The notes under the pieces were generated by a model. It did not search any database, was not told where the DNA came from, and saw only the letters and a program-made list of their open reading frames with translations. The position numbers and the translations under genes are program-made. Shown here in pieces: positions 26,247 to 49,756 of a DNA stretch of 64,000 nucleotides. The DNA comes from Botryllus schlosseri (lineage: Eukaryota): contig CM119380.1 of the NCBI GenBank assembly GCA_051294905.1, positions 14,384,001 through 14,448,000 of the forward strand, read 5' to 3'. The stretch's first letter is position 1, and each line of letters opens with the position of its first letter.

Positions 26247-27173
26247 GTGTTGAGTTTGGTCGAATCGGGTGCATTGCTAAACACACGGGATTGTGTGATA
26301 TTTCTGAGAAATCACGGGTTGTTGGTGCAAAGGATGAAATGCAAGCGATGTAAAAAAATAATGAAAGAGGAAATTACGTCGACAGGCGATGATGGATTTA
26401 GGTGGCGATGCAACCCCTGTGACACTACGGTGACTATACGGAAACACTCGATATTCGCGGGAAGTAAGATAGAACTTCCCAAATTGTTGATTTTATTCTA
26501 CTTTTGGGCCCATGACGCATTGCAAACCCAAATCGCGCATGAAGCTGAGATTAGCCAGCGTTCAACGGTTACCTGGTGCGGCAAATTGCGAAAGCTGTGT
26601 ACGGCCGAATTTCACAGGAACAAGCGACGTTTGGGAAAGGAAGGCGGTTGCGTGATTATTGATGAAACGCACTTAGCCAAGCGCCGGGCTGCCTCTGGTA
26701 AAGGACCAGCTGTTAAAGCCATTTGGGGGTTTGGAGGAATAGACAAAGCCACCGGAGAAATGTTCATTGAAATAACTTCTGACAGAACTGCTGAAGTATT
26801 TCGAAAACTCATAGTAGAAAATGTGACAGAGGGGTCCACAATTCTAACCGATGCCTATCCTTCCTACAAGGGCATAGAGAGCTGGGGGAAGGGTTATATA
26901 CACGGTGTAGTGGACCACTCCCGTTGGTTTAAGGACCCTCGGACAGCTTTTTGTACTAATGAAATCGAGGGGGCCTGGGGCCAGCTTAAATATCATTTAC
27001 ATAGATCTCGTGGTCTAGCACGTCATCTTTTGGCCGATTACGTAGGGGAGTTTTTGTGGAAACGTCAACATCAAAAGACTGACCGATTCTTGGCACTCCT
27101 GCGCACCATACACAATGATCCACGGTATAATTTTGACAAATTTGATGGGTCTCCTGTATTACCACATTTGTAA
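26247..27173 (+). CDS. IS1595/ISXO2 (Merlin-type) DDE transposase, copy 1; start codon unresolved
   Basis: N-terminal CxxC...DGFRWRC zinc finger; VIIDETHL, GSTILTDAYPSY and CTNEIEGAWGQLK give an intact D-D-E; frame is open from 26190 but has no ATG before 26334. Confidence 0.88.
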   Translation: MLSLVESGALLNTRDCVIFLRNHGLLVQRMKCKRCKKIMKEEITSTGDDGFRWRCNPCDTTVTIRKHSIFAGSKIELPKLLILFYFWAHDALQTQIAHEAEISQRSTVTWCGKLRKLCTAEFHRNKRRLGKEGGCVIIDETHLAKRRAASGKGPAVKAIWGFGGIDKATGEMFIEITSDRTAEVFRKLIVENVTEGSTILTDAYPSYKGIESWGKGYIHGVVDHSRWFKDPRTAFCTNEIEGAWGQLKYHLHRSRGLARHLLADYVGEFLWKRQHQKTDRFLALLRTIHNDPRYNFDKFDGSPVLPHL

Positions 27174-27270
27174 ACCCCGTTATAAGGTTCCAGGACGGAA
27201 ATGACGACATTTGTTGTTTTGTGTTTTTACAGACGGTAGTCTAGGTCTAGTGCGCGATTATAGTTAGTTT

Positions 27271-27411
27271 ATGACGTGGCGAGAACCACCACTGTCTGTA
27301 CCATGGACATCCTTCCTTATTCTCTGTCTATCCTTGTTGGTATCATTTGTACGTCTGATTTGGTGCTGCATACGGCGGCGAAAGGCATGCACGGACTTGC
27401 AGATCCTGTAA
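27271..27411 (+). CDS. Putative 46-aa small membrane protein overlapping the start of the fusion gene (not in the ORF track)
   Basis: MTWREPPLSVPWTSFLILCLSLLVSFVRLIWCCIRRRKACTDLQIL: one TM helix followed by CC and RRRK; first ATG after the candidate acceptor at 27231-27232. Confidence 0.45.
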   Translation: MTWREPPLSVPWTSFLILCLSLLVSFVRLIWCCIRRRKACTDLQIL

Positions 27412-48233: not shown

Positions 48234-48740
48234 ATGTGTTTGGGATTGCGTTGTGATGATCCGGAAATACAACATTTGATATGGACACCCCAAAAAGAGA
48301 CACTAATAGACAAAGGATTAAAGTCGCTGAAGTTTCTGTTAACAACATATACATTAACGGATCATTTATGTGACATAATGTACGACGAATTAAATCCACG
48401 GCTACAATATTGGAAGCAAAAGTATGGTCTTACTACGTGTAATAATCATTGGCCTGGGAAACATCTGGTTGAAGATGAGTGGGAAGAAATTTATACAGGA
48501 AGCATTTACCCTGAAAAACCTATACAAATGGCTTTTGCAGAAATCTGCATAAACTGGGTAACAATTTTAAAAAGAGTAAATCCTGAAATGCGGGAATTTC
48601 TAAAAAAAGGAGACTCTGAAAGAGATCTCATAATGTGGATAATCTTTCCGGAAGCTCAAATCTACTCGTGGGCGAAGACGCAGGAAATAACCATAAAAGA
48701 AGCCGATTGTCAATTTATGGCTTTGAAAATACCTGCATGA
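48234..48740 (+). CDS. Orphan family C protein (168 aa)
   Basis: Paralog of the 44112 N-terminal region. Confidence 0.68.
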   Translation: MCLGLRCDDPEIQHLIWTPQKETLIDKGLKSLKFLLTTYTLTDHLCDIMYDELNPRLQYWKQKYGLTTCNNHWPGKHLVEDEWEEIYTGSIYPEKPIQMAFAEICINWVTILKRVNPEMREFLKKGDSERDLIMWIIFPEAQIYSWAKTQEITIKEADCQFMALKIPA

Positions 48741-48808
48741 AATTTAACTTTCCAATGTTTGTATATACAGAAACTACTTTTGAAAAGACAATAAAGTTCT
48801 AAATAAAT

Positions 48809-49756
48809 ATGAAGACTAAAGAACCCAGAAAAAGAAGAAATCTATTCAATCTTGCTCGACGTGGTATAATATCAAGTGAACGAAAATGTATAAAGTTTCT
48901 GCGATCACGGCAACTTCTTGTTCAAAAGGCAACATGTTTTAAATGCGGACAACAGATGAATGAAGAAAAATGCGAAAGAACTATGGATGGATATAGATGG
49001 AGGTGTCCGGTTTCAAAGTGCCGGACTACCACGTCCATAAGGAAAAGATCGCTATTTGAAGGAAGTAAAATAAGACTCACCCAACTTGTAATGATGATTT
49101 ATCTTTGGACCATAGACGTATCTCAACGACAAATAGCTTTTGAAGCACACGTCAGCAAGAGAACAATGGTAAATTGGACCAAAAAACTTCGTAAGATATG
49201 CTCTGGGGAGATGGACAGAAGAGGTACCCTAATAGGGGGAATATCACAAGGTAAATCACATGTAATTCAAATTGATGAGACGTTTGTGGCCAAAAGAAAA
49301 TTTAATCGTGGAAGAATAATACGTCAACGCTGGGTTTTGGCTGGAATAGATATGAAAACGCGAGAAATGTTTGCAGAATTGGTACCTGAAGAAGGGAGAA
49401 AAACCTCTATATTATCAAAAATAATTATGAAACATGTAAAAGAGGGATCTACTATATGGACTGATTCGTTTGCCAGTTACCGTAAGTTGGAAAGCCTGGG
49501 AATGAATTATAAACATTCAATAGTAAATCATGATCGCGAATTTGTCACCACAGAAGGCATAAATACACAATTAATCGAGGTGTCTTGGAATTTTTTTAAA
49601 GCTGCTATTAGAAGACTGAATGGGGTATCAAGATCACTTATTCCTCATTACTTACAGGAGTGGCTTTGGAAAAGAAGGGTGACCTTGGAGGAAAGGTTTC
49701 AACTATTTTTAGAGATAATTGCTCTTGATACTAACTTTAGGACATTGGAACATTGA
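48809..49756 (+). CDS. IS1595/ISXO2 (Merlin-type) DDE transposase, copy 2 (315 aa)
   Basis: CFKC...DGYRWRC zinc finger; IQIDETFV, GSTIWTDSFASY and NTQLIEVSW give an intact D-D-E; only 68 bp downstream of the previous stop. Confidence 0.9.
   Translation: MKTKEPRKRRNLFNLARRGIISSERKCIKFLRSRQLLVQKATCFKCGQQMNEEKCERTMDGYRWRCPVSKCRTTTSIRKRSLFEGSKIRLTQLVMMIYLWTIDVSQRQIAFEAHVSKRTMVNWTKKLRKICSGEMDRRGTLIGGISQGKSHVIQIDETFVAKRKFNRGRIIRQRWVLAGIDMKTREMFAELVPEEGRKTSILSKIIMKHVKEGSTIWTDSFASYRKLESLGMNYKHSIVNHDREFVTTEGINTQLIEVSWNFFKAAIRRLNGVSRSLIPHYLQEWLWKRRVTLEERFQLFLEIIALDTNFRTLEH

Follow-up and report, generated by a model that had tools for sequence, protein, structure and literature searches.

We analysed a window of 64,000 nucleotides from Botryllus schlosseri (assembly GCA_051294905.1, contig CM119380.1, positions 14,384,001 to 14,448,000 of the forward strand; all coordinates below count from the first letter of the window). 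It carries two genes for transposases of the Merlin/IS1595 type, two envelope-like (env) genes, an array of accessory open reading frames (ORFs) and gag- and pol-like genes. A preliminary description, made from the sequence alone, had taken the two transposases for captured, resident genes of a retroelement that might do the cutting and joining in place of a retroviral integrase. These genes lie within 25,935-63,974 (38,040 bp), an interval with both ends inside the window that, judging from its termini, is very probably one mobile element inserted by a Merlin/IS1595-type DDE transposase (Table 1).

The ends came from a search of exact 8-mer direct pairs between 24001-26334 and 63703-64000, each scored for inward inverted match. 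Only one of the 17 pairs gave a match of 16/22 with GG at both tips, the runner-up reaching 9/22. This pair, CACACATG, is exact at 8 bp only, failing at 6, 7 and 9-11 bp, and forms the target-site duplication (TSD) that flanks the terminal inverted repeats (TIRs). When the whole window was used as a control, 3 of 54,375 pairs reached 16/22, the two others lying in simple repeats; local shuffling, repeated 10 times, gave 5 such pairs among about 465,000, a chance of ∼2e-4 for 17 pairs. Repeat and self-comparison searches of the window revealed no long direct repeat and no long terminal repeat (LTR) at the ends. Merlin elements are described as having GG-tipped TIRs, many of them imperfect, and TSDs of 8-9 bp (PMC8101967), and LTR elements as having TSDs of 3-6 bp (PMC10045372). 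The 23-bp arms found here agree with a Merlin TIR of about 24 bp or more starting with 5′-GG and are as imperfect as those of published families. The preliminary description had named TSD length as the measure to take, 8-9 bp being Merlin-like and 4-6 bp integrase-like, and at the one insertion seen it was exactly 8 bp. The compact layout with a single transposase was not found, since two transposases and ∼17 other ORFs are spread over 38 kb. A contig of X8, a sequencing run under another organism label, joins 46442 to 63840, an internal deletion with the right end kept, supporting the unity of the cargo with that end. Two other candidates for element ends, the 49-bp tandem array and the inverted arms nested at 25.0-25.2 kb and at 37.9-39.0 kb, were rejected as dispersed small repeats that share no TSD. 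Six contigs of run X1 matched only from 63899 onward (63899-63974), which suggests that the terminal ∼75 bp on the right also occur in other subfamilies.

Both transposase ORFs are intact, with a four-cysteine ribbon and a catalytic D-D-E triad. Both matched PF12762 (E 7e-10 for copy 1 and 5e-17 for copy 2) in a Pfam scan of 22 ORFs of the window, which gave no match to PF12760; the NF033547 score was 95.9 bits for copy 2, over the 75-bit cut-off, and 67.7 bits for copy 1, under it, although copy 1 does exceed the Pfam cut-off. In an alignment of 15 proteins, made up of both window copies and 13 of 14 database matches, the catalytic D, D and E were invariant and three ribbon cysteines nearly so. 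The two proteins share 38% identity over 302 amino acids (BLASTP), and in a tree of 16 transposases they fell into separate sub-clades, each with 100/100 support. These sub-clades join in a weakly supported group (84/87) that also includes a Styela clava protein; the tree carries long-branch warnings, and no order of events was drawn from it. The preliminary description was borne out in stating that both copies keep the zinc finger and D-D-E, that they are quite divergent from each other and that they lie in array orientation, both being on the plus strand with the neighbouring genes. Its very short flanks were exact for the 68 bp upstream of copy 2, but the distance from the copy 1 stop to the env1 ATG is 129 bp rather than ∼100. 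The inverted-repeat check that it proposed around each ORF uncovered no TIR/TSD belonging to either. Among TSD candidates of 8 or 9 bp within 800 bp of the ORF, the best inverted match was 11/20 for copy 1 (391 and 111 pairs, respectively) and 12/20 for copy 2 (532 and 163 pairs), and the best GG..CC pairs around either ORF reached 13/20, without a TSD. The earlier report of no TIRs or TSD is correct for each ORF alone and wrong for the whole element, whose TIRs and TSD bound it inside the window. A transposase 1 profile found no match in viral contigs or prokaryote genomes, and no contig shared by transposase relatives and Pol relatives was recognised among the matches compared.

The gene next to the left TIR is that of transposase 1, which is likely to be the enzyme that integrates the element. 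Its catalytic residues are encoded at 26661 (D), 26850 (D) and 26967 (E). The zinc ribbon begins at the first ATG (26334), with ∼35 conserved codons 5′ of it. Because this conservation begins at a splice-acceptor-like CAG at 26221-26223 (junction 26223/26224), a start exon must be spliced onto the gene; candidate start exons are present inside the left end, none of them evident. Relatives at 64-75% keep D-D-E, and those at 72-74% and 64% also have the N-terminal motif upstream of the first ATG. In one relative, P0193, translation of the read-through tail gives words identical to those of the window's env1 acceptor, and the link between transposase and env is therefore conserved. The fold model of transposase 1 (mean predicted local distance difference test score 83.7, confident from about residue 18) matched best, at 11-17% identity, the structures of Mos1 and of the cores of retroviral integrases.

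Transposase 2 behaved differently in a related copy. A single 11,024-nt contig of run X8 is collinear with 44082-55557 but skips from 48747 to 49899. Fourteen letters at the joint resemble 48748-48761, so the missing cassette is ∼48762-49898. TAT stands at each of its bounds, and GG..CC ends, an 8-bp duplication and a Merlin footprint are all missing; an independent Merlin would have an empty site with an 8-bp target, and the empty version shows the 3-nt microhomology only. Because it is absent from the X8 copy as a gene-sized cassette, copy 2 is accessory. The 55590 ORF is also missing from that copy as a cassette (55557 to 56056, with 55558-56055 gone). Summed word depth in run X1, a measure that according to the tool's own warning gives no copy number, was level across copy 2 (1285 and 958, versus 1197 and 965 next to it), a pattern in keeping with a gene that travels together with its neighbours and not with a free transposon. 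One intact relative of 315 amino acids was found at 73%. RNA depth over transposase 2 was very low in the two mapped runs, the peak in that bin being the end of the upstream gene. In run X22, 5 of 15 RNA molecules stop at position 48745, where the 48234 gene ends and the cassette has its edge. Transposase 2 would be an old, separately evolving and dispensable passenger or back-up, exchanged like other accessory cassettes. The two copies do not appear to be equivalent, copy 1 being end-proximal and copy 2 optional. The equal status as captured cargo that the preliminary description gave them did not survive the absence of copy 2 from the X8 copy, and copy 1 is better read as the element's own end-proximal transposase.

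Pol ends in a Tpt1/KptA domain (63200-63702) where an integrase would be, an arrangement conserved in its clade (P0001-P0004, P0043). A profile built from 113 integrase segments gave no match over the six frames of the window (best independent E-value 1.8), and it matched none of nine clade Pols, compared with 4/4 gypsy controls. Tpt1 is listed for 9 of 11 clade Pols or fragments, in several cases below the curated cut-off, and an integrase family for none of the 11. The four closest Pols, at 34-42% over the alignment, all end in a Tpt1-like domain. The cluster of one relative has 31 members, and among the 15 listed, seven of 956-997 amino acids lie on different contigs of 0.26-1.5 Mb. Since clade Pols have no integrase, the integrase-less layout is a trait of the clade. 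That Pol lacks an integrase within the window, as noted earlier, agrees with both the Pfam scan and the profile. The alternative then offered, a separate integrase ORF beyond 64000, is excluded for this copy. The left tip of the element lies 255 bp 5′ of the transposase 1 frame and the right tip, at 63974, only 272 bp 3′ of the pol stop; therefore, there is no room for an integrase downstream within the element.

In all three loci compared, namely the window, L008 and L009, pol overlaps gag in the −1 frame; A-AAA-AAC occurs in two of these. L008 and L009 were the two close loci among the best 80 that a Pol profile found in metagenomes, each covering gag-pol only. In viral contigs the profile found seven distant loci at 22-24%, and in prokaryote genomes no match. 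Against PDB the best match was 8r0s, 'Enzymatic polyprotein' (E 1e-39), followed by Ty3 (E 2e-33), a ranking that is no phylogeny; we take 8r0s to be a caulimovirus reverse transcriptase (RT). The related Pol P0044/P0205 carries an exonuclease III/AP-endonuclease-like domain after Tpt1.

Besides the −1 overlap of gag and pol and the single-ORF cargo genes, two observations bear on an RNA stage. The first is a 25-mer upstream of gag whose behaviour is that of the host's spliced leader. Of the reads in RNA run X24, 3110 carry a loose 5′ portion, presumably a template-switch adapter, that stops at 56897, and their sequence becomes diverse past ∼56921-56931. After 56921 an X8 contig continues with GT, as a leader gene would, and the window continues with CT. 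Because no GT follows 56921, the 25-mer in the window is a relic of a trans-spliced mRNA. It ends in TAAG, as the Ciona leader is reported to do (PMC7986045), and the presence of a leader in the genome just ahead of a gene is described as an accepted mark of retroposition (PMC5585692). The leader's behaviour and the Styela clava transposase both fit an ascidian host. No second relic was present in the window, the next best match being 17/25, and in the literature searched we found no published sequence of the leader. One X8 contig has differences at both 56839 and 57226; the related X8 copy, this suggests, also spans the leader relic. The segment 56705-56771 had high RNA depth in run X22 (882) with loose ends on both sides and is probably a repeat common to other transcripts. 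An RNA joint from 63792 to 56897 (15 reads), which begins in an A run, was discounted as a probable library artefact. The second observation is one X1 contig that lacks exactly 49251-49657, a consensus GT-AG segment in transposase 2 running from CAAG/GTAAAT to a pyrimidine-rich CAG/G, whose loss removes all three catalytic residues. Motifs that strong number 8 donors and 36 acceptors in 20 kb, which gives a chance of ∼1e-4 over 28 joints (15 listed). These findings hint that parts of the element passed through mRNA and that its machinery looks usable; normal passage of the whole element through RNA is not thereby implied.

The remaining features of the element are collected in Table 1. The envelope identity of env1 and env2 is a lead from sequence features: env1 had no Pfam match, and its Atlas features scored 0.87-0.88 to coronavirus spike and paramyxovirus F clusters, values below 0.9 that count as a lead only. 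The cargo genes are single ORFs, all on one strand. Four paralogues lie in the second part of the array (52777, 53238, 54967 and 55590), and 55471-55540 is 78% like 56818-56889. Rfam gave no match, and a look-up of RNA data sets for 54001-64000 listed none.

Table 1. Features of the element and its immediate flanks (window coordinates; IAP, inhibitor of apoptosis protein; LRR, leucine-rich repeat; MITE, miniature inverted-repeat transposable element)
Feature	Position	Strand	Remarks
Left TSD CACACATG	25927..25934		8 bp
Left TIR	25935..25957	+	23 bp, GG start, 17/23 versus right arm
Merlin/IS1595 transposase 1, probable integrator	26190..27173	+	Pfam, alignment, fold model
env1 (envelope-like)	27303..29819	+	838 aa; class-I-fusion-like: basic cleavage site ~480, hydrophobic ~485-511, transmembrane ~767-802
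env2 (envelope-like)	29906..33379	+	1157 aa; membrane glycoprotein-like, Thr-rich stalk; N-terminal part paralogous to env1
Tandem repeat, 49-bp unit	33676..33909	+	4.8 copies
~8-kb stretch without ORFs of 100 aa	33910..41755	.	small repeats, also present outside the element, including a MITE
hAT-like MITE inside element	34419-34608		own 8-bp TSD GTTGACAC
Small hAT-like MITEs	37441-37986; 25159-25363		inside the element; just outside
Accessory ORF array, first part	41756..48740	+	ORFs 41756, 43433, 44112, 46352, LRR 47103, 48234
Transposase 2 cassette	48762..49898	+	~1.14 kb; ORF 48809-49756; D156, D219, E257; 3-nt microhomology at bounds, no TIR/TSD
Accessory ORF array, second part	49982..56039	+	49982; IAP (3 BIR + RING) 50936; 53864; ubiquitin-conjugating enzyme (E2) 54375; paralogues
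Spliced-leader-like exon fixed in DNA	56897..56921	+	25 nt, 5′ of membrane upstream ORF and gag
Small hydrophobic (membrane) upstream ORF	57195..57464	+
gag-like ORF	57473..60289	+	938 aa, CCHC knuckle; slippery heptamer A-AAA-AAC at 60268
pol, −1 frame	60220..63702 (or from 60382)	+	protease, RT, RNase H, Tpt1/KptA; no integrase
Right TIR	63952..63974	-	23 bp, GG tip
Right TSD CACACATG	63975..63982		second copy, exact

Left of the element, the window contains further repeats. A P-element/THAP9-like transposon with 90-nt inverted ends (98%) occupies 6549-14479, its transposase lying in two pieces (7493 and 12946) split by other sequence that includes a 104-bp tandem array. Three ∼530-bp repeat copies at 90-94% lie at 19666-21555, with a frame that we take to resemble the end of a non-LTR retrotransposon ORF, and a hAT-like element with a TIR match of 13/14 and the 8-bp TSD TTCTAACG lies at 22528-23899.

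We favour, with modest confidence, the explanation that this is a reverse-transcribing element, probably enveloped, which transposase 1 integrates and in which transposase 2 is an optional passenger; that it replicates through RNA we hold only slightly more probable than the opposite. In such a cycle, a long sense transcript, read-through or end-to-end, would be packaged with Gag and with Gag-Pol made by −1 frameshifting, and reverse-transcribed in the Gag particles. After cutting the DNA copy at the TIRs, the transposase would insert it elsewhere across an 8-bp stagger. LTRs and integrase would not be needed, since it is the TIR transposase that sets the ends. The env1 and env2 products could let particles pass between cells, and the IAP, E2 and LRR cargo could manage host responses. 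The earlier proposal that the transposases supply cutting and joining in place of an integrase gains from the Merlin-type ends around the whole element; it does not apply to both ORFs alike. Several points weigh against the explanation we favour. Both ends were observed at one insertion only, and the ranges of the end search were picked after the match had been spotted by eye. Mapping of contigs and reads at 63974 gave no fresh flanks among the joints listed, with only 26 nt of flank in the window. The activities of transposases 1 and 2 are predicted. No primer-binding site or strand-transfer mechanism was identified, no comparison with host tRNAs having been made. Efficient packaging is difficult to reconcile with a length of 38 kb and an 8-kb host-like interior that contains MITEs. 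The leader relic is the trace of one past reverse transcription of part of the element, not of a regular route; the GT-AG skip was seen in one contig, from a run only guessed to be DNA, with a 3-nt microhomology, and may be an ordinary deletion or RNA. The X8 contig falls short of the element ends and so may come from a non-autonomous copy.

The alternative that survives best, though we consider it unlikely, is a giant cut-and-paste Merlin DNA transposon that captured gag-pol-env and host genes, the RT serving another selfish end (particles, cDNA capture) or being merely carried. The ends are purely Merlin, internal-deletion derivatives keep the right end, internal MITEs would be copied intact by DNA moves, and no LTR or primer site was identified, all of which such a transposon would explain. 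It would leave unexplained the leader relic and the GT-AG skip, and an integrase-less, Tpt1-ended Pol that is intact in relatives at 34-42% is hard to account for unless the RT aids spread; moreover, DNA transposition is reported to drop with cargo above 6 kb (PMC6431247). A further step down in probability, and improbable in our view, is an episomal, integrase-less enveloped virus of pararetrovirus type fused with a Merlin transposon, comparable to Teratorn, whose circle with abutting TIRs would be opened by the transposase to integrate. The linear order transposase-env-env-cargo-gag-pol is indeed a circular permutation of retroviral gag-pol-integrase-env, and transposase 1 lacks an evident start exon, although candidate start exons also lie inside the left end. 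The PDB match of Pol to 8r0s, presumably a caulimovirus RT, ahead of Ty3 points the same way, but that ranking is no phylogeny; no junction from right to left end occurred among the reads and contigs listed, in a mapping that could hardly show one. Two independent transposase insertions in or beside an ordinary LTR element, with the integrase beyond the window and the TIR/TSD match due to chance, is a very remote prospect and already largely refuted: the proteins are only 38% identical and in separate sub-clades, and copy 2 has an empty version, but the end match has a chance of ∼2e-4, neither ORF has its own TIR/TSD, the empty version shows no 8-bp duplication or footprint, and there is no integrase in any clade Pol and no LTR.

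Returning to the reverse-transcribing element integrated by transposase 1, we give equal weight for and against its being a new class of animal enveloped reverse-transcribing elements. In this class a Merlin/IS1595 transposase and TIRs would replace integrase and LTRs, replication would possibly be circular with the order gag-pol-transposase-env, and cassettes, including the second transposase, would be gained and lost through trans-spliced mRNAs. To our knowledge, retroelements with double-stranded cDNA integrate by their own integrase or by a tyrosine recombinase, and TIR DNA transposons form a separate class. If the explanation is true, a Gag-RT-Env set joined to a transposase like that of bacterial insertion sequences, and to its ends, crosses the line between retroelements and DNA transposons; LTRs would be dispensable where a transposase trims the ends, and the element would be a living model for the recruitment of integrases from transposases. 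With 38 kb and a cargo that can be exchanged (IAP, E2 and LRR), the element would be a candidate vehicle for gene transfer in tunicates. The point about two transposases is itself modest, the second being optional. In the full-text literature (as distinct from subscription journals, Repbase entries and preprint supplements) we found no description of a transposase combined with Gag, RT and Env.

Among known systems, Caulimoviridae and DIRS elements share with the element an LTR-type RT-RNase H without a DDE integrase. Caulimoviruses, as far as we know, have neither active integration nor env. DIRS elements use a tyrosine recombinase, for which the Pfam scan gave no match, and a TSD is present here, unlike in DIRS. 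Burro, a giant planarian gypsy element, is similar in exceeding 30 kb and in carrying BIR/apoptosis and ubiquitin-related cargo and an F-like env, but is described as retaining LTRs, integrase and a huge polyprotein (PMC6431247). Teratorn, the fish fusion of piggyBac and an alloherpesvirus, would be the nearest described logic, by analogy: virus-like genes lie within short TIRs over 41-182 kb, and a DDE transposon enzyme integrates them (PMC6431247). In contrast to the Gag, protease, RT, RNase H and Merlin enzyme of the present element, it is a DNA virus with a DNA polymerase, capsid genes and piggyBac (PMC6431247); the Pfam scan showed neither herpesvirus core genes nor a piggyBac transposase. 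Env-carrying Ty3/gypsy elements (errantiviruses, including those of tunicates) have in common with it gag, a −1 frameshifted pol with protease, RT and RNase H, and an F-type env-like gene, but place an integrase in Pol, are bounded by LTRs and follow the order gag-pol-env or gag-env-pol (PMC13524379). A 2026 survey of these elements that includes tunicates defines members by integrase and LTRs, and the words 'transposase' and 'Tpt1' do not occur in its main text (PMC13524379). Of the errantivirus hallmarks, gag, a protease-RT-RNase H pol and, by sequence features, env are present here; an integrase (HHCC and rve) and LTRs with a 4-6-bp TSD are absent, Tpt1 stands in the place of the integrase and env precedes gag. 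With Merlin/IS1595 (IS1016) the element shares a DDE_Tnp_IS1595 domain with intact D-D-E, GG-tipped imperfect TIRs and an 8-bp TSD (PMC8101967, PMC10045372). It differs in its 38 kb, ∼19 ORFs, two transposases, gag, RT and env-like genes, and in a four-cysteine ribbon that aligns with those of bacterial IS1595 proteins, whereas described Merlins are said to be without one (PMC8101967). All in all, the element appears Merlin-like at its ends and errantivirus-like in its core, and its predicted features place it outside both groups.

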